Assembly: GCA_017608385.1 (NCBI GenBank)
Contig: JAFCFZ010000004.1
Coordinates: forward strand, 2,253-66,252
DNA length: 64,000 bases
Direction of reading: 5' to 3'
Source: Candidatus Parvarchaeota archaeon
GTDB taxonomy: Archaea > Nanobdellota > Nanobdellia > B33-G15
A program made the translations under genes and the position numbers. This document shows positions 54,527-64,000 of this stretch, piece after piece (the stretch's first letter is position 1; every line of letters begins with the position of its first letter). The notes under the pieces are model-generated. The model made no database searches, had not been told where the DNA came from, and saw only the letters and a list, made by a program, of their open reading frames with translations.

Positions 54527-57367
54527 GTGATGAAAAAGATTCTTTTTATAGTATCAATTTTATTATTTACAATAGGTACTGCTAGGGCAGATATCTTCAC
54601 TCCATGGATTCAAGGGATATCATCATTTTTTTCAGATTACACCAATATTGCGATTGCATTGGCTTTATCTGTTGTGACAATGGCAGTTGCAAAAAAAGCA
54701 TTTGGATCTAGATATGGGGGTGGAGATAATAAGATACCAATAGCAATTGGAATTGCTGTTTTCATATTTTCAATGATTTATTTTCCCCAAACACCTGTTT
54801 CCGGTTATGTTAATGGGATCCTTTATACCCCAGGAACTGGTGGAATTGGAGTTCTTGGTGGACTTAATCTTGGAACTCTACCAGGATTGATTATATCCAT
54901 TATCTTTGTTATTGCAGTTTTTTGGGCTTGGAAAAATGGAAAATTTGAGAACAAAACTCATTGGCTTGTTTTTGTGGGGATGCTTGCAGCAACACTTATG
55001 GCATTTATATTTTCATATTTTAGAATCTATGTACTTTCAGGGGCTGCAGGTTTAGCGGCTGTTTTACTCTTCATTGCTTTCTTAATCCTTTTCATAAGGA
55101 ATATTGCAATGTCTGGTGTTAATTGGAGTAAGGCAGGTATTGGAAGATCTAAAGGAGGAGAAGATTCAATTGAAAAAGGAGATGGAAAAAGGGTGATGAG
55201 AAGGAATTTGAGGAACATGAGCAAATTGGATAAAAACATAGTAAAGATCATAAACATAAAAGACCAAAAACTCATACCTACTCTCAAAAGTTTAGCAAGT
55301 TTAATGGAATTTGCTAAGAAAGGAGTTCTTCCTGTAAAAGTAACAGGCGATGTTATGAGTGATTTAAAAAAACTAAATCTACTTTATTTAGGAACAACTA
55401 GGATATTTAAGATATTTTCTGAAGAAAAAAGATCTCGATATGCTGCTACTTCTGTAGTGTTAAAGAGAATAGCATTCAAAAGAGGAAATACAAGAAAACA
55501 AATGAAAGAAGGATTTTCAGCGTTGGAAAGATTACTCGATTCTAAAAATGTTGACTCAAAAACTAAAGAATATTTGAGAGCAATAAGAAATATTATGATA
55601 GGTGGAGGAATTAAGTTAAATGTTACCTTTAGTGTTGAAGGGGGAAGTCCAAGAGTAGAAGAGAAATCTATTATTAACTTTTTGAATGATAAGAGAATAA
55701 AGAAGAAGGTAGCTATATTCCCTATTGATGAGGGAGGTCTATCCAATCTTAGAGCGATATGGCATAACGTTGCAAATATGGTAGGTTTTAAACAACATGA
55801 AGAAGAATTGAGATTCCATTTAGATGCAGTTCAATCCAAAGTAGATCTTTCAAAGTTCGGTGTAACAAGTGAAGGACTGAAAAAAATTGCGGCAAAAAGA
55901 CCTACAGGTAAACCAGAAAGTGATTTGATGAGATCTGTTGTTGCTTTGTTCGCTTTGAAAACAAATTATTATGGAATGATAGCATATCCTTTTCACAGTT
56001 CACTTTACAAATATAGAAACAATCTTGTTACTTTAATCAAATTAATCAATGAAACTAAGAAAGCAAGAAAAATAGCTAAGAAATACAATAAGGAAATACC
56101 TGATTCAACTCAAATGGAACAGGCAATTGTTAAAATGGTTGTTCAAGAAGGACTTTACTTAGCTGATATATTCTCAATATTTTCAACTTTGTTTAATGAT
56201 GGAGAACTCAATGGTCTTTCAGTCCAAATGAGACAAGGGATGAATAGACTATATCAACGTTCTTTTAGTGGAGAACCGTTAGGTAGGGATGAGTTATTCA
56301 CTTCACTTAAAGGATTTGGATTATTTAGAAGAAAGTTTAGGGAAATGAGTTTTAAAGAAGTAAGAAAAATGGGATCTCCTAGGAGATATAGAGACACAGC
56401 ATATTACACTCTTTTCAAAAAAATAGAAGAGGGTTCAAAAAGAAAATTAGAAAGTCAAGCTCAAATTTTAGATCAAATTGCTGAAGAATTGAAAGCAAAT
56501 CCTGGAGTAAAATCTACTCCAAATGTTCAAGGTAAATGGGATAATTTGATAGGACAAATAAATAGGGAAGAGCAACTCATGCTAAAGTTAAATGAAGTTT
56601 TAAAACACTTTAAAGAGACTGACAAGAAAGAAGAATACCTTCTCAGAAAAATGTTAGGAGCTATCGAAAAAATTGAAGAACCTATTAAAGAATATTTTGA
56701 AGAGGAGGAAAAAACGGAAGAGGAAGAGAAAAAAATTGAGGAAAAAGAAGAAAAGATTGTTCATAAGATAGATGAATCATTTGCAATTCTAAACAAGAGT
56801 ATGCCGGATGTTAAAAATTTAACATCCCTAACATCATATTATTTATGGCAAGCAGAGAATTATCGTAAAGGATATTCTAATTTTTTGAAAAATGCTCGTG
56901 AGATTGGTAAATTAGTGGGAAAAACATTCATGAAAGGAAATAAGGTAAAGCCAGGAATTAGTGAAGAACTCAAGAAAGCAATTAATGAAGCATTTAATGC
57001 ATTTAATAATTATTTGGAAACACAGAAGACAGTATCAAAGAAAAAGTCAGAATTTGGAAATGGATTAAGACAACTAGTTGAGACTGGTTTGGATCCTGAT
57101 GAACTTAAAGAAATCTCTAAGATTGTTAAGAGAAAAGAAAAGGATGGAAGTAAAACTACAAAAATAATAATTAGTATCCAGAAACTAGCTGAAAGGACTA
57201 GGAAAGAAGATGCTTTAGGTAAGAAAATTAAAAGTATAGTTGATAGGCAATTTCATTCATTACCTCATGCAAAACTCATGGAAAATGTTAAAGAAGCTAA
57301 TTGGACTAATATCATGAAGATGAGAGATTTGAGAAAAGCATTGAAGGAAGAATTGAAATCTAAATAA
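54527..57367 (+). CDS. Large (946 aa) membrane protein. It has a Sec signal peptide, a polytopic N-terminal domain (about 230 aa) and a long K/E-rich predicted coiled-coil tail
   Basis: MMKKILFIVSILLFTIGTARA-DIF signal peptide, then 4-5 TM helices, then about 700 aa of charged helical repeats (EEEEKTEEEEKKIEEKEEK). Confidence 0.55.
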   Translation: MMKKILFIVSILLFTIGTARADIFTPWIQGISSFFSDYTNIAIALALSVVTMAVAKKAFGSRYGGGDNKIPIAIGIAVFIFSMIYFPQTPVSGYVNGILYTPGTGGIGVLGGLNLGTLPGLIISIIFVIAVFWAWKNGKFENKTHWLVFVGMLAATLMAFIFSYFRIYVLSGAAGLAAVLLFIAFLILFIRNIAMSGVNWSKAGIGRSKGGEDSIEKGDGKRVMRRNLRNMSKLDKNIVKIINIKDQKLIPTLKSLASLMEFAKKGVLPVKVTGDVMSDLKKLNLLYLGTTRIFKIFSEEKRSRYAATSVVLKRIAFKRGNTRKQMKEGFSALERLLDSKNVDSKTKEYLRAIRNIMIGGGIKLNVTFSVEGGSPRVEEKSIINFLNDKRIKKKVAIFPIDEGGLSNLRAIWHNVANMVGFKQHEEELRFHLDAVQSKVDLSKFGVTSEGLKKIAAKRPTGKPESDLMRSVVALFALKTNYYGMIAYPFHSSLYKYRNNLVTLIKLINETKKARKIAKKYNKEIPDSTQMEQAIVKMVVQEGLYLADIFSIFSTLFNDGELNGLSVQMRQGMNRLYQRSFSGEPLGRDELFTSLKGFGLFRRKFREMSFKEVRKMGSPRRYRDTAYYTLFKKIEEGSKRKLESQAQILDQIAEELKANPGVKSTPNVQGKWDNLIGQINREEQLMLKLNEVLKHFKETDKKEEYLLRKMLGAIEKIEEPIKEYFEEEEKTEEEEKKIEEKEEKIVHKIDESFAILNKSMPDVKNLTSLTSYYLWQAENYRKGYSNFLKNAREIGKLVGKTFMKGNKVKPGISEELKKAINEAFNAFNNYLETQKTVSKKKSEFGNGLRQLVETGLDPDELKEISKIVKRKEKDGSKTTKIIISIQKLAERTRKEDALGKKIKSIVDRQFHSLPHAKLMENVKEANWTNIMKMRDLRKALKEELKSK

Positions 57368-57418
57368 TTGATTAGTAATCTTTTTAATCTTCATTCTTTT
57401 ATATTAAAGTGATAAAAA

Positions 57419-57952
57419 ATGTCAGATAGTATGTTTGGGGGCGTTGTACAGACACTTCAAAATATGGGGTTTTTTGATGTGATTCTACCTTTTTTACTTA
57501 TATTTGCAGTGATTTATGGAGTTCTAGCAAGAGCTCAAATATTTGAAGATAGAAACGATATCAATGCAGTTATTGCATTTGTTATGGGAATGCTTGTTAT
57601 AGGGTCTTCTTGGGTTGTTGGAGTTTTAACCGGATTCTTACCTATAGTTGGTTTATTGTCTGTTGTTTTTTTAGGTGGGTTTATTCTATTTGCAATGTTT
57701 GCTGGAAATGCTGAAAATATTTATGATGGAAAAGCAAAATATGTTGCAGCTGCAGTTATTCTGGTTGTTTTTCCTTTAATTTTAGTTAATATGATTGCAC
57801 CAACTTTTTGGGGGGATATGACCAATGATTGGGCATTACCTTTTAGTATGGTTGATATGGGTGTGATGGTTGCAATGGTTTTAGTTATTGGAATTATGAT
57901 ATGGATTACTAAACCAAGTGGAGGCGATGGAGGAGGTAGTTCAAGTGATTGA
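57419..57952 (+). CDS. 4-TM membrane protein of an unknown family, tandem paralog 1
   Basis: LPFLLIFAVIYGVLARAQIFEDRNDINAVIAFVMGM is conserved with paralog 3. C-terminal G/S/D tail. Confidence 0.55.
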   Translation: MSDSMFGGVVQTLQNMGFFDVILPFLLIFAVIYGVLARAQIFEDRNDINAVIAFVMGMLVIGSSWVVGVLTGFLPIVGLLSVVFLGGFILFAMFAGNAENIYDGKAKYVAAAVILVVFPLILVNMIAPTFWGDMTNDWALPFSMVDMGVMVAMVLVIGIMIWITKPSGGDGGGSSSD

Positions 57953-58478
57953 AGGAATTTTCACTGCGATATGGCAAGGTTTTGCTTCTTTAACTCCCGC
58001 AGGAGTTTCTCCTGAATATTTTTGGCCAACATTCATACTTGTTTTTGCAATGGTTTACACTATCCTAGAAAAGGTCAAAGTTTTTGGAGATATTCAACAT
58101 GGAAATAAAAGAGGAATTTATCTCATAGTTGCATTGGTTTTTGCATATTTTACAGCGAGCTCTGCATTTGCAACATTAATTATTGCAAAGATGACACCAC
58201 AGTTAGGAATGGTGCTTGTTGCAATATTAGTATTTTTGATCATATTTACTTTCCTTTCCGGAGGAGATGATATGACTGGAGAAAAATATCCAAAATGGTT
58301 GTTGTGGGTGATGGTATTAATTGGTGTCGCTTGGGTATTTGGCTCAACATTTTTTGAAGTTACAGGAACATCATTCAGTACGGGATCGTTTGCTCTTTCA
58401 CAAGCTGATATGGGAATAATATTTGCATTGGGAATCTTTGGATTTGTCCTATGGTTCCTTTTTAAAGATAAGAATTGA
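57918..58478 (+). CDS. 4-TM membrane protein, tandem paralog 2. The start is possibly the GTG at 57945
   Basis: FILVFAMVYTILEKVKVFGD is conserved with paralogs 1 and 3. It overlaps the paralog-1 stop. Confidence 0.5.
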   Translation: MEAMEEVVQVIEGIFTAIWQGFASLTPAGVSPEYFWPTFILVFAMVYTILEKVKVFGDIQHGNKRGIYLIVALVFAYFTASSAFATLIIAKMTPQLGMVLVAILVFLIIFTFLSGGDDMTGEKYPKWLLWVMVLIGVAWVFGSTFFEVTGTSFSTGSFALSQADMGIIFALGIFGFVLWFLFKDKN

Positions 58479-58484
58479 TGAAAA

Positions 58485-59027
58485 ATGGCTGAACAAACAT
58501 TTTTAGAAGCAATTGGAATTTTCCAGTACTTTGGATTACAATATTTGCTAGTTCCCCTGTTAATTTTTGTTATGACTCTTGGAATTCTTCAAAAAACCAA
58601 GATGATAAGTGATAAACCAGATATTAATGCAGCCATAGGATTCTCATTTGCTTTTGTTATTGCTATGGTACCACAATTTGTTGATTTTCTTGCTTTTTTG
58701 ATGCCATTAATGATAGGATTCATTATGATATTGTTTGGAATAGGAATGATTTTTATGTTATTTGGAGCAAAATCAGACAATTTTTTTAATTTTTTCAAGA
58801 GCCCCGGAATAATCATTCTCACTATTGTTATTTTCATGATAATAGTATTCTATTCTATTTCGGATGTTTTTGGAGATCAAATTTCTTCATGGACTTCAGA
58901 TAATAGAACAACAGGAGGAATGGGTTCTGGAGTAGAGAGAATATTTAGTCCAGAAGTATTTGGAACAGTAATCTTCATTTCAGTTGCAGCTGTGGGAGTA
59001 TATATGATTAGTGCGCAGAAATCTTAA
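58485..59027 (+). CDS. 4-TM membrane protein, tandem paralog 3
   Basis: LVPLLIFVMTLGILQKTKMISDKPDINAAIGFSFAFVIA is conserved with paralog 1. Confidence 0.55.
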   Translation: MAEQTFLEAIGIFQYFGLQYLLVPLLIFVMTLGILQKTKMISDKPDINAAIGFSFAFVIAMVPQFVDFLAFLMPLMIGFIMILFGIGMIFMLFGAKSDNFFNFFKSPGIIILTIVIFMIIVFYSISDVFGDQISSWTSDNRTTGGMGSGVERIFSPEVFGTVIFISVAAVGVYMISAQKS

Positions 59028-59672
59028 TTATTCTTTTTTAGTCTTAGTTACTTCTTTTAATTCTTTGATACTATCTGTTAAAGTAGGAACCAATTTACTC
59101 ATAACCTTATCAAGAGCTTGCATTTCAATACTTACTTCTTGCATACTCTTTCCATATTCATCTACCTTAGCTGCCATAGTAGCTTCAATAGCATCAACTC
59201 TTTTTTTGAAGTCTTCAACTTTAGAATCTATTTTATCAATCTGTTTTTCAACCTTAGCTTTCCACTCTTCCATTATCACTAATTTTTCTTCAACATCAAT
59301 CCATTTTTCTTGAATTATTTGTTCAAGAATTCTTTCAATTTCCTCAACACTTCTATCTTTTACTTCCATGCCTGGAGCTGGTGCAAAATCTGGAGAAGCT
59401 CCAAAATCCATTGTTGGCATTGCTTGTTGAGGTTGTTGTGGTAAAGGTGGTAAAGCTGTTTCGGGATTTGGGTTAGAATTTGCAGCAGATTTTAATTCAG
59501 CTTGACTCATTGCATCTTTTATTTGTTGGAATTCATATCCTTCTGCTCTTAATTGATTAATAATTTGATCATTATTCATTCCTTGATTTCTAAGATCTAA
59601 AACCTCTTTTACAGGAACTTTTTTATGAGTTCCTTCATCCTTACCTCTTAGTCTATCTAAAATTCCCATCAA
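59028..59672 (-). CDS. Coiled-coil protein with an N-terminal helical domain and a P/Q-rich low-complexity linker
   Basis: N-terminus MMGILDRLRGK...; linker PNPETALPPLPQQPQQAMP; C-terminal heptad-rich half. Confidence 0.45.
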   Translation of the reverse strand: MMGILDRLRGKDEGTHKKVPVKEVLDLRNQGMNNDQIINQLRAEGYEFQQIKDAMSQAELKSAANSNPNPETALPPLPQQPQQAMPTMDFGASPDFAPAPGMEVKDRSVEEIERILEQIIQEKWIDVEEKLVIMEEWKAKVEKQIDKIDSKVEDFKKRVDAIEATMAAKVDEYGKSMQEVSIEMQALDKVMSKLVPTLTDSIKELKEVTKTKKE

Positions 59673-60040
59673 ACACGACCTATCTCTCTTCTAATCAATT
59701 CGACCGCTTCTTCCTTTGTTAAGAATCTTGTAGGGTCAAACAAGTTAATATATCTTTCTAACACTTTTATATCTTGGTTTCTTGCAACGTTTTGCATGTC
59801 CTTTATTAGGTTTCTTAGAGCACCTTCCATTTCCTTCATATTTCCTTTGAAAGAATTGGTTTCTTCTTGTAAATCAACAATCATTTCTTTTAGTTCTTTA
59901 GTTCTTTTTAATCCACTTTCATCAATTATCTTCATTTTCATAGATAATTGTTCATATCTCTCTTCTACAAGCCTTATCCGGTTAGTTAATTGAGTAACTT
60001 GCTGATATAGAACCTGAATATAGTTTTCCTGTTTTTCCAT
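59669..60040 (-). CDS. Small coiled-coil protein, translationally coupled to the downstream coiled-coil gene by an ATGA overlap
   Basis: 123 aa, helical and heptad-rich. It is divergent from the secretion ATPase. Confidence 0.45.
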   Translation of the reverse strand: MEKQENYIQVLYQQVTQLTNRIRLVEERYEQLSMKMKIIDESGLKRTKELKEMIVDLQEETNSFKGNMKEMEGALRNLIKDMQNVARNQDIKVLERYINLFDPTRFLTKEEAVELIRREIGRV

Positions 60041-60118: not shown

Positions 60119-62401
60119 ATGCCCGAAACCAAAAAACCCTGTTCATATACAGTGGAAATTGAAGGAAACCAAAAGAATTTGGTAGTTAATTGTATTGGTT
60201 GTTTTTTATATCCTAGCATAGAGGATAACAAAGCATGTATGGAAAGAGTTGTGGACTATATAATAGCATCAGGTACGCCAACAAATGTTATTCTTTCAAG
60301 TAGCAGAAACATAATTTATCCTGTTGAACAAACAAGGATGTTGGTTGAAATTGCAAACCTCCATAAAAAATTTGTCAAAGAACAAAATGTTTTTGATATA
60401 AATTTAATATCTCCTCATGATAGAGAAGCTTTGCCAGAAAGATTAGCAACAATGAAGGAAATCGTTCTGAACAATTTGAGGGGAGATCCTATTGGTGCAT
60501 ATGTTCAAACTTTAAGAGAATTAAGAGAACAAAAAGCAAAACTGCCTTCTGCAACTCCAAAAGAAAGATCTAGTTTGGAAGCATTTATCAAAGTCTTGGT
60601 GAACATTCTCGAATCTATCGAAGGAACTTCTATCATTAAAAAAGCAATGCCAAAACTTCCTGGACACAAGATAGGAGATAGAGAAGTTTACAGAGATATA
60701 TTCAAGCCCTTGATAAAACCAAATTTTATGCTCACTCGTTTAATGGCTGAACCTCCAATAAAAGCACAAGAAATAGATTCTTACACTATTGGAGGCAAAA
60801 ATAAATCAGATGTTCTTATTTTCAAAGTTCCTGGAAAAATTCAATATCTTTACCATCTAAATCCTCCGGAATTCAAGTTAGATGAAGATGCATATGTTCT
60901 GTTAGATGAAGCAAGAAATGTTTTAGCAAAACATAAACCAGGAGAAAAAGAATTTGTTGACCCAAAAAGAGTCAGGGGTATATTTACAAACATTAGTAAG
61001 GATTTGTTAGAACAATTAGCAAATTCTAGAAGAATGAAGTTGAAGTATGATGAAATAGAAAAATTGGCTGAAATACTTGTTAGATTAACAGTTGGATTCG
61101 GTCTTATTGAAGTTCTTTTAGAAGATGAAAAGATTGAAGATATTTACATAAATGCACCCGTAGGAACTGAGAAAGTTTTCATAAAACATGCAGAATATGG
61201 AGAATGTTTTACTAATATTATTCCTAGTTTCACAGAGGCAGAAGCTTGGGCTTCAAGATTTCGTATGATTTCAGGAAGACCTTTGGATGAAGCTAATCCT
61301 GTTTTAGATGCTGAAATAATTACACCTACTGTTTTTTCAAGAGCCGCGGTTATTCAAAATCCAATAAGTCCAAAAGGACTTTCATTTGCATTTAGAAGAC
61401 ATAGAGCAAAGCCATGGACTCTTCCTTTGTTTATAAAACAAAAATATCTATCTCCCCTTTCTGCAGGATTACTTTCTTTCTTAGTTGATGGATCAAGATC
61501 TATCTTAGTTGCAGGAACAAGAGGAGCAGGTAAAACCAGTCTTTTGACAGCACTAATGGTTGAAATCATGAGAAAGTTCAGGGTGATTACAATAGAAGAT
61601 ACAATGGAATTACCAACTGAGTCATTCAAAGAAATAGGATATAATATATTACCACTGAAGGTTAGAAGTGCAATTGTTGGAAGTAAATCTGAAATGAGCG
61701 CATCAGATGGGATAAGAACTTCTTTACGTTTAGGAGATTCTTCTTTGATTATAGGTGAGGTCAGAAGTAAAGAAGCTGTTGCTCTGTATGAAGCAATGAG
61801 GATAGGAGCGTTGGCTAATGTGGTGGCAGGAACAATTCATGGAGATAGCCCATATGGTGTTTTTGATAGAGTAGTTAATGATTTGGGAGTTCCAAGAACA
61901 AGTTTTAAGGCAACAGATATTATAATTGTAGCTAATAAAATCAGAAGTCCAGATTTGCTTTCAGAGATGAGAAGAGTTATGAGTGTAACCGAAGTAAGAA
62001 AACATTGGGAAGATGATCCCGTTAGAGAAAAGGGATTTGAAAATTTAATGGAATACAATTCAAAAAAAGATATTTTAGAACCTTCCCGTAATTTGATGGA
62101 AGGAGAGAGTGAAGTTCTAAAATCAATTGGTTCTAGGGTAAAAGAGTGGATTGGTGACTGGGATAGGATATGGGATAATATTCAATTAAGAGCAGACATA
62201 AAGAGTATGATAGTGAAATATTCAGATGCAGATCCCTCTATTTTGGAGGCAAACTCTGTGGTCAGTTCCAATGATAAATTTCATATGATATTTGAACAAC
62301 TTTCAAAAGAAACAGGATATCCTGAGAGTGATAGGGTAAAAGCTGATTTTGAAGAATGGTTAAAAGCAAAGATAAAGAAAAAAAATGAAAAAAAGCTATG
62401 A
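60119..62401 (+). CDS. Type II/IV secretion-superfamily ATPase (FlaI/TadA/VirB11-like), atypically long at 760 aa
   Basis: Walker A VAGTRGAGKTSLL, Asp/Walker-B box RVITIEDTMEL, the conserved LRLGDSSLIIGEVRSKEA segment, and His box GTIHGDSP. The N-terminal extension before the ATPase core is about 450 aa. Confidence 0.8.
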   Translation: MPETKKPCSYTVEIEGNQKNLVVNCIGCFLYPSIEDNKACMERVVDYIIASGTPTNVILSSSRNIIYPVEQTRMLVEIANLHKKFVKEQNVFDINLISPHDREALPERLATMKEIVLNNLRGDPIGAYVQTLRELREQKAKLPSATPKERSSLEAFIKVLVNILESIEGTSIIKKAMPKLPGHKIGDREVYRDIFKPLIKPNFMLTRLMAEPPIKAQEIDSYTIGGKNKSDVLIFKVPGKIQYLYHLNPPEFKLDEDAYVLLDEARNVLAKHKPGEKEFVDPKRVRGIFTNISKDLLEQLANSRRMKLKYDEIEKLAEILVRLTVGFGLIEVLLEDEKIEDIYINAPVGTEKVFIKHAEYGECFTNIIPSFTEAEAWASRFRMISGRPLDEANPVLDAEIITPTVFSRAAVIQNPISPKGLSFAFRRHRAKPWTLPLFIKQKYLSPLSAGLLSFLVDGSRSILVAGTRGAGKTSLLTALMVEIMRKFRVITIEDTMELPTESFKEIGYNILPLKVRSAIVGSKSEMSASDGIRTSLRLGDSSLIIGEVRSKEAVALYEAMRIGALANVVAGTIHGDSPYGVFDRVVNDLGVPRTSFKATDIIIVANKIRSPDLLSEMRRVMSVTEVRKHWEDDPVREKGFENLMEYNSKKDILEPSRNLMEGESEVLKSIGSRVKEWIGDWDRIWDNIQLRADIKSMIVKYSDADPSILEANSVVSSNDKFHMIFEQLSKETGYPESDRVKADFEEWLKAKIKKKNEKKL

Positions 62402-64000
62402 TGAGATTTTTAATAAATATATAAAAGAAACTCCTACTAAGAAGCAGACAGTTAGTAGGGATTTTAAGTTATTTCTAAAAGATGAAAGAACTGGATTTAT
62501 GAAAAGATATGAATCTTTATGTAAATCCGCAGGGAAAATATTAATGGTCAGTATACCTGATGAAGAAAAGAAAAGGCTTCAAAATGCAATCAAACTCAAT
62601 GCCATGTCTGTAACTCCTGAAGAAATTGGTTCGTTGTCTCTTCTTGCTCTTTTAATGACAATAATGTTTACTGGAGTTGTTGCTGTTATCTTCTTCATGT
62701 TTAATTTATTAACTGGAGTAATGTCTTTGATTGTTTTGGGCTTAGGTCTAGCGGGTATTTTGATGTATGATAAAATACGTAAATATCCCATTGGTTTGAT
62801 AGAAACAAGAAGAATAAGGTCTTCAAATGAATTGGTCCTGTCTATATTGTACATTGTTTCTTATATGAGACACACTTCCAACTTAGAGGAAGCAATAAGA
62901 TTTGCTGCTTCTAATCTTGAAGGACCTCTCTCTAATGATTTTATCAAAATGATATGGGATATTCAAGCTAGAAAATATTCAGATATCCAAGACGCACTAA
63001 ATAATTATTTAATGAATTGGAAAGAATTCAATCCTGCATTTGTTGATGCAATGTATTTGATAAGAAGCACTCTGTATCAAGGAGATGAAGCAAATAGATT
63101 GGCTCTTTTAGATGAATCAGTCAATAGAATATTAGATGGTACATTTAGAAATATGGTAAATTATGCTTCTTCTTTAAGAAATCCTATTAACACAATTTAC
63201 ATGATGGGTATTGTTTTACCTGTTTTAGGAATGGTAATGTTTCCAATGGTTTCTACTTTTATGGCAGAATCAATAAGTACCGAAATTATGATAGTAGGTT
63301 ATAATATAATCCTCCCTCTCCTTGTTTTCTTGCTTGCAAAAAATATTCTCAAAAATAGACCATCTGGTTTTCCTTATGTTGATATATCTGGACATCCAGA
63401 AATTGCAAAGAGGCATTATTTTTACTTGGGAAAGAAACAATATCCTGCAATAATCCCAGCGATTATAGCTTTCTTAGTTATGGCAGGTCCTTTTATATTC
63501 CTTTTAATGATAACGACTGAAATATCTGAAATACAGATTTATTTGAGCATTCCAATTACTTTTGCTGCTGCTGCTGCAATTTATGTATACACTCGCTTGA
63601 CAACAACAAAACCAATGAGTATTCTCAAAAAAGTCTATTCTGTTGAAAATGATTTTTCTCATGCAATTTTTCAATTAGGAACTATTTTAGTTCAAGAAGT
63701 TCCTGTCGAGCAGGCATTTATTAAAGTAGCTTCATCAATGAAGGGTTCTGAAACATCTGATTTTTTGAGAAGAGTAGTTAATAATATTAGAAGTGTAGGT
63801 TTAAGCGCTTCAGATGCTCTCTTTCACAAAGAATATGGTGCTGTTTTGATGTTCCCTTCTCCAATAATCAAAAGTACAATGAAAGTTTTAGTAGATACAT
63901 CTAAAAAGAGTTTGAAAGATGCAGGAATAGCTCTTATTTTTGTTTCAAAATATCTCAGAAGCTTGAAAGAAATAGATGATAGGGTTAATGATTCTCTTGA
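62385..64000 (+). CDS. FlaJ/TadC/GspF-like membrane platform protein (3' end runs off the window)
   Basis: The ORF is not in the supplied track because it has no stop inside the window. ATG at 62385 (MKKSYDEIF...). The layout is a cytoplasmic N-terminus, a TM pair, a ~150-aa cytoplasmic helical domain, then more TM helices. This is the T2SSF-like arrangement, immediately downstream of the ATPase. Confidence 0.6.
   Translation, partial: MKKSYDEIFNKYIKETPTKKQTVSRDFKLFLKDERTGFMKRYESLCKSAGKILMVSIPDEEKKRLQNAIKLNAMSVTPEEIGSLSLLALLMTIMFTGVVAVIFFMFNLLTGVMSLIVLGLGLAGILMYDKIRKYPIGLIETRRIRSSNELVLSILYIVSYMRHTSNLEEAIRFAASNLEGPLSNDFIKMIWDIQARKYSDIQDALNNYLMNWKEFNPAFVDAMYLIRSTLYQGDEANRLALLDESVNRILDGTFRNMVNYASSLRNPINTIYMMGIVLPVLGMVMFPMVSTFMAESISTEIMIVGYNIILPLLVFLLAKNILKNRPSGFPYVDISGHPEIAKRHYFYLGKKQYPAIIPAIIAFLVMAGPFIFLLMITTEISEIQIYLSIPITFAAAAAIYVYTRLTTTKPMSILKKVYSVENDFSHAIFQLGTILVQEVPVEQAFIKVASSMKGSETSDFLRRVVNNIRSVGLSASDALFHKEYGAVLMFPSPIIKSTMKVLVDTSKKSLKDAGIALIFVSKYLRSLKEIDDRVNDSL

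Follow-up and report, generated by a model that had tools for sequence, protein, structure and literature searches.

What is the role of three tandem genes, each encoding a membrane protein of about 180 amino acids (aa), that lie close to the gene for a secretion-type ATPase on contig JAFCFZ010000004.1 of Candidatus Parvarchaeota archaeon (assembly GCA_017608385.1)? We analyzed a stretch of 64,000 nucleotides (nt) of this contig (positions 2,253 to 66,252 of the forward strand), which we call the window; the three genes are called g1, g2, and g3 in the order in which they are read, and together they are the trio. DPANN archaea are a large share of archaeal diversity and live attached to hosts, and most of the lineage-specific genes of these archaea encode unannotated membrane proteins. 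A preliminary description of the window, made from its sequence alone, had presented the trio as paralogs of no recognizable family and, because of their position, as subunits of a secretion apparatus. We found that the trio genes are paralogs whose triplication is ancient and that they belong to a conserved neighborhood of seven genes. We lean, on balance, toward the view that their products make up a hetero-oligomer in the membrane that serves as the base or scaffold of a machine specific to DPANN archaea and resembling type IV filament systems.

Paralogy and age of the trio

The g1, g2, and g3 proteins are paralogous. In pairwise BLASTP comparisons with composition adjustment, g1 matched g3 with an E value of 4e-10 (26% identity over 140 residues) and g2 with an E value of 1e-7 (23% identity over 147 residues); the match between g2 and g3 had an E value of only 0.015 and was limited to the N-terminal motif. 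We also scored the three proteins against hidden Markov models (HMMs), one for each position, that were trained on the genes in first, second, and third place at about 80 other loci; neither the window nor its close relatives contributed to them. The scores were 50 to 71 bits for g1, 43 to 57 bits for g2, and 76 bits for g3. The controls, which were 300 shuffles plus the reversed sequence of each protein, gave a maximum of 8.9 bits against the same HMMs. Because the scores of the trio are so far above those of the controls, the similarity among its members is due to homology and not to hydrophobic composition. The preliminary claim of three tandem paralogous genes of about 180 aa thus holds, and each gene is an open reading frame (ORF) as it had been drawn. 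The conserved motifs that had been quoted in its support were found as well: the first lies in g1, the second in g3, and the third in g2.

A motif-seeded scan of one genome per species, for which we used a 24-sequence subset because the full 95-sequence alignment was too divergent, gave 541 relatives. The loci of the best 80 of these were fetched, and the counts given here and below rest on 85 nonredundant loci. Exactly three tandem copies were present in 83 of the 85; one locus had four copies and one had a single copy. When each gene was compared by BLAST to the genes of other loci, the best match was the gene at the same position in 82 of 82 cases, and this was true of each of the three positions. 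The copies therefore make up three orthologous groups that split before these lineages diverged and that have kept their order since. By this comparison of sequences, the triplication is not local, as had been proposed, and is older than the divergence of the Woesearchaeota-, Pacearchaeota-, and window-type lineages.

The window lineage is a divergent branch of the family. The g3 protein clearly belongs to position 3, since it matched the position-3 HMM alone (75.6 bits). The g1 and g2 proteins lean to positions 1 and 2 by smaller margins: the highest-scoring HMM for g1 was that of position 1, at 70.6 bits versus 65.9 bits for position 2, and for g2 it was that of position 2, at 57.1 bits. Positions 1 and 2 have in common the motif G-x-[YF]-D-V-[IL]-L-P-F-L-L, in which the Asp is conserved in 100% of position 1 and 84% of position 2 proteins, and the Pro in 100% and 90%, respectively. 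Position 3 is the most divergent copy and has no conserved Asp; it carries a C-terminal HPKVLG-like motif that is also found in g3 ((F)SPEVFG / HPKVLG).

Two oddities were seen among the relatives. The sole single-member locus (L034:8001-8609) has no coiled-coil genes and no ATPase gene within 8 kb on either side, and its copy may be stray or specialized. One protein of 365 aa, P0098, appears to be a fusion of position 1 and position 2 in one ORF, and is the single case of its kind. Because each unit has five spans (see below), the second unit of such a protein would be inverted, so P0098 may be a product of a frameshift or of gene calling. Given this topological conflict, we did not use it as evidence of a natural fusion.

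Conserved gene neighborhood

The order of genes in the window is the trio (+ strand), two genes for coiled-coil proteins of 214 and 123 aa (− strand), a gene for an ATPase that is divergent from these (+ strand), and a gene for a polytopic platform protein (+ strand). We clustered all of the ORFs in the 85 loci without labels, and only five families proved to be conserved around the trio. The numbers of loci with a member were 84 for the trio family, 74 for the 214-aa protein, 56 for the 123-aa protein, 52 for the ATPase, and 35 for the platform protein; where these numbers are lower, the cause is in large part the limited extent of the fetched sequence. The next commonest neighbors, Translin and aspartyl-tRNA synthetase, are housekeeping families. 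The gene for the 214-aa coiled-coil protein lies directly after the trio in 66 of the 70 loci that have at least 2 kb of downstream sequence, and the ATPase gene is present in 42 of the 54 that have at least 6 kb, at a median distance of 1.5 kb from the trio.

This arrangement is kept in the nearest relatives of the window, in distant Woesearchaeota loci, and in divergent Pacearchaeota-type loci, which have two to three copies of the trio family and a PRC-barrel gene upstream. It also survives a local rearrangement in locus L008. The trio, the two coiled-coil proteins, a FlaI/CpaF/GspE2-type ATPase, and a platform protein of the PilC/GspF fold thus form a conserved neighborhood of seven genes. 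In the Pacearchaeota-type loci, the PRC-barrel gene encodes about 100 aa and lies just 5′ of the first copy (L010:9093-9422, L092:9133-9450, L093:9653-9958, and L094:8261-8539).

We looked both for a lack of significant similarity among the trio proteins and for homologs located away from the ATPase gene, and the paralogy as well as the neighborhood link survived. The preliminary description had also spoken of an operon. The association of the trio with the coiled-coil genes and the ATPase gene is consistent across loci, but these do not form one operon, because the strand that carries the two coiled-coil genes is not that of the others: they converge with g3 and diverge from the ATPase gene, with which they share an intergenic region of about 80 nt.

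Motor and coiled-coil proteins

The ATPase belongs to the PilB/GspE/FlaI superfamily. It matched T2SSE in Pfam (E = 1.1e-17), TadA and FlaI in NCBIfam (2.8e-36 and 3.7e-36, respectively), and, among the sequences in the PDB, GspE2 of A. fulgidus (1.8e-27), CpaF (3.8e-22), and FlaI (1.7e-15). Judged by these matches, the seven-gene module has an assembly ATPase of the family that characterizes type IV filament systems. About 290 aa at the N terminus of the ATPase (residues 1 to 290, positions 60119 to 60990) have no counterpart in GspE2, FlaI, or CpaF, and this extension is kept in the L001 ortholog. Its first 41 residues include four cysteines (C8, C25, C28, and C40), which may constitute a metal-binding module.

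The next gene, which overlaps the stop codon of the ATPase gene by 17 nt, runs past the window's last position; we recovered the full-length protein (P0269) from the window's own contig. Pfam T2SSF matched 3 of 17 orthologs of this protein, in each case below the threshold (best E value, 0.0014), and one ortholog has a precomputed match to PF00482. We obtained an AlphaFold model from 38 homologs (predicted local distance difference test [pLDDT] score, 84.5; predicted template modeling [pTM] score, 0.78) and compared it to known structures with Foldseek. The first match was PilC of the type IVa pilus machine (3jc8; probability, 0.90). Crystal structures of the cytoplasmic domains of OutF and EpsF were matched with probabilities of 0.97 to 1.0, template modeling scores of 0.63 to 0.70, and root mean square deviations of 3.3 to 3.6 Å over about 120 residues. 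The global E values were weak (0.08 to 2), so the evidence for the fold is at the level of the domain. The PilC/GspF-like domain fold and the position of the gene directly after that of the ATPase together identify the 687-aa protein as the platform, and by this model a GspF/PilC-type platform, as in type IV filament systems, is encoded beside the ATPase.

Both of the proteins encoded on the opposite strand are soluble, with no membrane span. Coiled-coil protein 1 has a conserved helical domain (UBA/HTH-like) of about 45 aa at its N terminus, then a Pro/Gln-rich linker of variable length, and then a conserved coiled coil of about 110 aa at its C terminus. Coiled-coil protein 2 consists of a coiled coil, and the motif W-x-P-x-x-F-V-T is conserved at its C terminus. 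When profiles of the two proteins were compared to Pfam and the PDB, the only matches were generic ones to coiled coils. FlaC_arch was matched by 2 of the 25 members of these profiles (E = 0.0065), which we did not consider meaningful.

Topology of the trio proteins

The preliminary description had given the trio proteins four transmembrane segments, but they probably have five. In every one of the orthologous groups, averaged hydropathy revealed five hydrophobic segments. The AlphaFold model of g1, made from the 95-sequence alignment (pLDDT, 81; pTM, 0.53), has a short amphipathic helix at the N terminus (residues 5 to 15) followed by five long helices (residues 18 to 39, 46 to 61, 64 to 95, 106 to 134, and 144 to 164). 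The first span of g1 carries a G-FFDVILPFLLIF motif. Lys and Arg residues are concentrated in the loop after span 1, which is Lys rich, and in the C-terminal tail; for position 1, the Lys-plus-Arg values were 5.4 in loop 1 and 3.7 in the tail versus 0.06 to 1.5 in the other loops and the N-terminal segment. Under the positive-inside rule, this distribution would put the N terminus outside the cell and loop 1 and the C-terminal tail inside. The conserved Asp would then be at the predicted outer end of span 1.

Because the pTM of the g1 monomer model is only 0.53, the packing of its helices is not confidently predicted. The combination of good local confidence with a low pTM would be consistent with helices that pack on partner subunits. 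We also considered a model of g2 and g3 as a single chain, read through the two stop codons, and rejected it, as the link of 3 residues clashes with a C terminus inside and an N terminus outside.

Size, hosts, and relatives of the family

By the searches described here, the trio represents an unnamed, uncharacterized, and widespread family of small integral membrane proteins. A word-indexed profile search returned 96 homologs, all of them labeled hypothetical or nameless. When 1.84 billion representative proteins were searched exhaustively with HMMER, 3,871 clusters (at 50% identity) had E values of ≤1e-3, and 2,463 of these reached ≤1e-10. Where the titles of the records were informative, those of the best 80 loci named Woesearchaeota, Nanoarchaeota, Nanoarchaeia, or Nanobdellati, and none of the related loci had a bacterial title. 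Many of the records of metagenome-assembled genomes that bear the module (L012, L017, L019, and others) are titled "uncultured Methanosarcinales archaeon" (binchicken assemblies). One protein encoded in L012 has 100% identity to P0025, and P0025 is found on a second metagenome scaffold that bears the module too; these titles therefore look like placeholder or incorrect taxonomy.

The preliminary description had recognized no family for the trio, and we found none either. In Pfam, g1 and g3 had no match at E values of ≤1, and the best match of g2, to AzlD, scored 18.2 bits, which is below the cutoff of 23.7. NCBIfam, PHROGs, and PADLOC gave nothing meaningful. A profile search of all PDB sequences yielded only rhodopsin and NuoJ at the level of chance (E ≥ 0.9), and Foldseek found no match to the g1 model (best E values, 3 in the PDB and 0.9 among the BFVD viral models; probability, ≤0.2). 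The trio is also distinct from its large neighbors: hhalign showed no relation to the platform protein (probability, 0.2%) or to the membrane part of the 946-aa protein encoded upstream. No trio protein matched Pfam T2SSF, so homology to platforms of the T2SSF/PilC/FlaJ/TadBC type was not found. A targeted full-text search of the literature outside subscription-only sources, including work on DPANN protein families and by cryo-electron tomography, turned up no description of the family.

Function of the module

The strict retention of the three copies in a 1:1:1 ratio and in fixed order over deep divergence is what would be expected of distinct, obligate, and nonredundant subunits of one complex. 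The reading toward which we lean is that the three paralogs assemble into a single hetero-oligomeric complex in the membrane. The lasting proximity of the trio to the ATPase-platform pair and the coiled-coil pair suggests that the five accessory proteins are the membrane and cytoplasmic base of the machine. The trio complex and the two cytoplasmic coiled-coil proteins would thus make up a lineage-specific base or scaffold, acting as an anchor, a stator, or a conduit, of a type IV filament-like machine driven by the ATPase and platform. Such a machine would probably assemble or display surface structures with which these host-dependent cells contact other cells. The earlier suggestion that the trio proteins are structural or membrane subunits of the apparatus is supported to this extent by the conserved neighborhood, from which it still has to be deduced.

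Several points weigh against this reading. The evidence that the trio is functionally linked to the machine comes from gene neighborhood. In 12 of the 54 loci with at least 6 kb downstream there is no ATPase gene in that span, and the association of the trio with the coiled-coil pair is closer than that with the ATPase. With the coiled-coil genes lying between them on the opposite strand, the trio is not cotranscribed with the ATPase gene, so what links the two is conserved neighborhood and not cotranscription. Among the families conserved around the trio in the 85 loci, there was no gene for a pilin or a prepilin peptidase (for Peptidase A24 [PibD/FlaK], the rest of the window and the genomes were not scanned), and a crude scan of the window for the class III pattern found no pilin-like protein. 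Pilins may be encoded elsewhere in the genome.

Some of these points would be explained if the trio and the two coiled-coil proteins were a five-gene system of their own, for example, a membrane-anchored cytoskeletal, division, or envelope-organizing complex that is merely a frequent neighbor of the motor. The fact that the trio is accompanied more regularly by the coiled-coil genes (66/70) than by the ATPase gene (42/54), the separate transcription units of the trio and the ATPase gene groups, and the lack of any secretion-specific feature in the coiled-coil proteins all fit this explanation. We nonetheless think it unlikely, because the ATPase and the platform protein are the only other families conserved in the neighborhood and remain adjacent across very divergent lineages and after rearrangement. 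In addition, the coiled-coil genes share their short divergent intergenic region with the ATPase gene, and some of the type IV pilus loci of archaea are known to encode cytoplasmic accessory proteins with coiled coils (PMC4858521). A different possibility, and in our judgment quite an unlikely one, accepts the seven genes as one module and denies that it makes a pilus. It would be a DPANN-specific nanomachine of the cell envelope in which the trio is a new hetero-oligomeric channel or conduit, the coiled coils gate or scaffold it, and a repurposed ATPase-platform pair energizes it. This would account for the missing conserved pilin and prepilin peptidase and for the near-universality of the module in cell-dependent lineages; if it were true, the machine might serve in host attachment or in the transfer of macromolecules between symbiont and host.

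The remaining explanations concern the trio itself. Small polytopic proteins with an Asp in the first span (100% of position 1 and 84% of position 2) followed by a Pro, and with a weak, subthreshold likeness to AzlD, YibE/F, and SMR-type proteins, could be a transporter or channel for small molecules or ions, homo- or hetero-oligomeric, that is unrelated to the ATPase and is kept near it by the compactness of the genome. We give this little credence: the likenesses are far below threshold (E values, 0.003 to 3) and are not common to all three paralogs, position 3 has no conserved Asp, and adjacency due to chance would not have lasted among proteins that are about 25% to 50% identical between lineages. 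It is very improbable indeed that the trio proteins are atypical pilins, that is, filament subunits or substrates that are pulled from the membrane by the motor. A near-invariant Gly just ahead of the first hydrophobic helix (G-FFDVILPF) bears a superficial resemblance to a prepilin cleavage site, and the conserved module encodes no canonical pilin. But the trio proteins have five spans and no globular domain, and no Lys or Arg is conserved at −2 or −3 or elsewhere ahead of the Gly, which bears out the preliminary statement that they have no class III (pilin-type) signal peptide. The positive-inside pattern puts their N termini outside, the opposite of prepilins, and the strict 1:1:1 ratio of three distinct copies is unlike major pilins, whose number expands and contracts. 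We thus return to the hetero-oligomeric base of a filament-like machine as the explanation that we prefer.

Possible substrates of the motor

Starts of the class III kind ([KR]-G/A, then Q/I/F and a hydrophobic helix) occur sporadically among the neighbors in related loci. In L010 such a start belongs to a Peptidase_M64 enzyme encoded directly after the ATPase (L010:14744-16441). Others were found in a 240-aa protein (L044:10458-11180), in a 506-aa protein (L001:11829-13349), in a Flp-like miniprotein of 52 aa that begins MSKG|IVIDQTMLLIIAV... (L001:13352-13510), and in two ORFs on the − strand (L032:340-2166 and L016:2940-3626). These proteins are possible substrates of the motor and are not conserved across loci. 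Their occurrence, that of the Peptidase_M64 enzyme included, may point to surface display like that of the bindosome, which we regard only as a lead.

Coordinates and flanking features

The features of the window are collected in Table 1.

Table 1. Positions of the trio and the neighboring features in the window
Feature	Positions	Strand	Length or remark	Source
g1 (position-1 paralog)	57419-57952	+	177 aa	ORF table
g2 (position-2 paralog)	57945-58478	+	177 aa from GTG 57945	ORF table and DNA
g3 (position-3 paralog)	58485-59027	+	180 aa	ORF table
Shine-Dalgarno-like GGAGGAGGT	57930-57938	+	6 nt 5′ of the g2 GTG start	Read from sequence
Coiled-coil protein 1	59028-59672	−	214 aa	ORF table
Coiled-coil protein 2	59669-60040	−	123 aa; 4-nt overlap with the start of coiled-coil protein 1	
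Secretion/assembly ATPase, PilB/GspE/FlaI superfamily	60119-62401	+	760 aa	
Polytopic platform protein	62385-64000, cut by window end	+	Full length, 687 aa (P0269)	Translation
Large upstream protein	54527-57367	+	946 aa	ORF table

The G+C content of the window is about 30%. Three codons in frame are candidates for the start of g2: GTG at 57918, ATG at 57927, and GTG at 57945. The last, which overlaps the stop codon of g1 by 8 nt as GTGATTGA, fits the N termini of the orthologs (MFEEIIPAIWQGF and MIEQFVTAIWQGF) better than do the other two. The preliminary description had also chosen this start, and the frame, the overlap, and the upstream GGAGGAGGT agree with it. The g1 gene has an alternative start, a second in-frame ATG at 57431. 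A TATA-like TTTATATTAA is found at 57397 to 57406, about 13 to 22 nt 5′ of the g1 ATG, inside the 51-nt gap that follows the gene for the 946-aa protein. Its nearness to the ATG suggests that the trio has its own promoter and that the leader is very short or absent. At the other end of the trio, g3 and the gene for the 214-aa protein are convergent with zero intergenic bases, their stop codons standing back to back (59025 to 59030). Because there is no room for a terminator between the two, their transcripts must either overlap or terminate within the gene on the other strand.

The 946-aa protein has several spans and an N terminus like that of a signal peptide, and its C-terminal part is long, charged, and coiled. 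Very large proteins (946 to 1,387 aa) are encoded directly 5′ of the trio only in the window lineage (the window and L003:691-8113). They had no match in Pfam or NCBIfam and are not conserved in the Woesearchaeota loci, and it is uncertain whether the 946-aa protein belongs to the module.

Comparison with known systems

With thousands of clusters, the trio family is among the more widespread unannotated membrane protein families of DPANN archaea that we could measure. With the order and the number of its copies strictly conserved next to a pilus-type motor, it has a concrete context that can be tested, and it is a candidate for a new core component of the surface machinery with which these cells may contact their hosts. 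Defining the trio would add accessory parts of a kind that has not been described for type IV filament systems, and would let annotators name three genes in each of hundreds of genomes.

The module shares a FlaI/CpaF/GspE2-like ATPase with the archaeal type IV filament machines (the A. fulgidus GspE2 clade, Epd, Aap, Ups, the bindosome BasEF, and the archaellum ArlI/ArlJ). It likewise has a polytopic protein of the GspF/PilC fold directly after the ATPase, as these machines have a TadC/FlaJ/PilC-type platform. The ATPase of the module exceeds FlaI and GspE2 in length by about 250 aa, and none of the described archaeal type IV filament systems has a trio of five-span paralogs of about 180 aa. 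A 2016 census of archaeal type IV pilus systems contains no component matching the trio or the coiled-coil pair, and in that census the cognate pilins of the nanoarchaeal ATPases could not be identified (PMC4858521).

Two other kinds of envelope machines offer analogies only. The FliP-FliQ-FliR (SctR-S-T) export gate also consists of small, related, helical membrane proteins encoded in tandem that are distinct subunits of one hetero-oligomeric core. However, its ATPase is of a different superfamily from that of the module, and Foldseek comparison of the g1 model to FliQ (8z5s) and SctRST (6r6b) gave E values of 7.2 and 10 with probabilities of ≤0.08, which do not indicate homology. The MotA/ExbB/TolQ stators are likewise small polytopic proteins that have conserved Pro and acidic residues within a span and sit beside an envelope machine. 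The trio has no sequence or fold match to them, and its Asp, which position 3 lacks, is predicted to be at the outer end of span 1. The motor is thus one of the known superfamily of type IV filament machines, to which the trio and the coiled-coil pair would be new parts.

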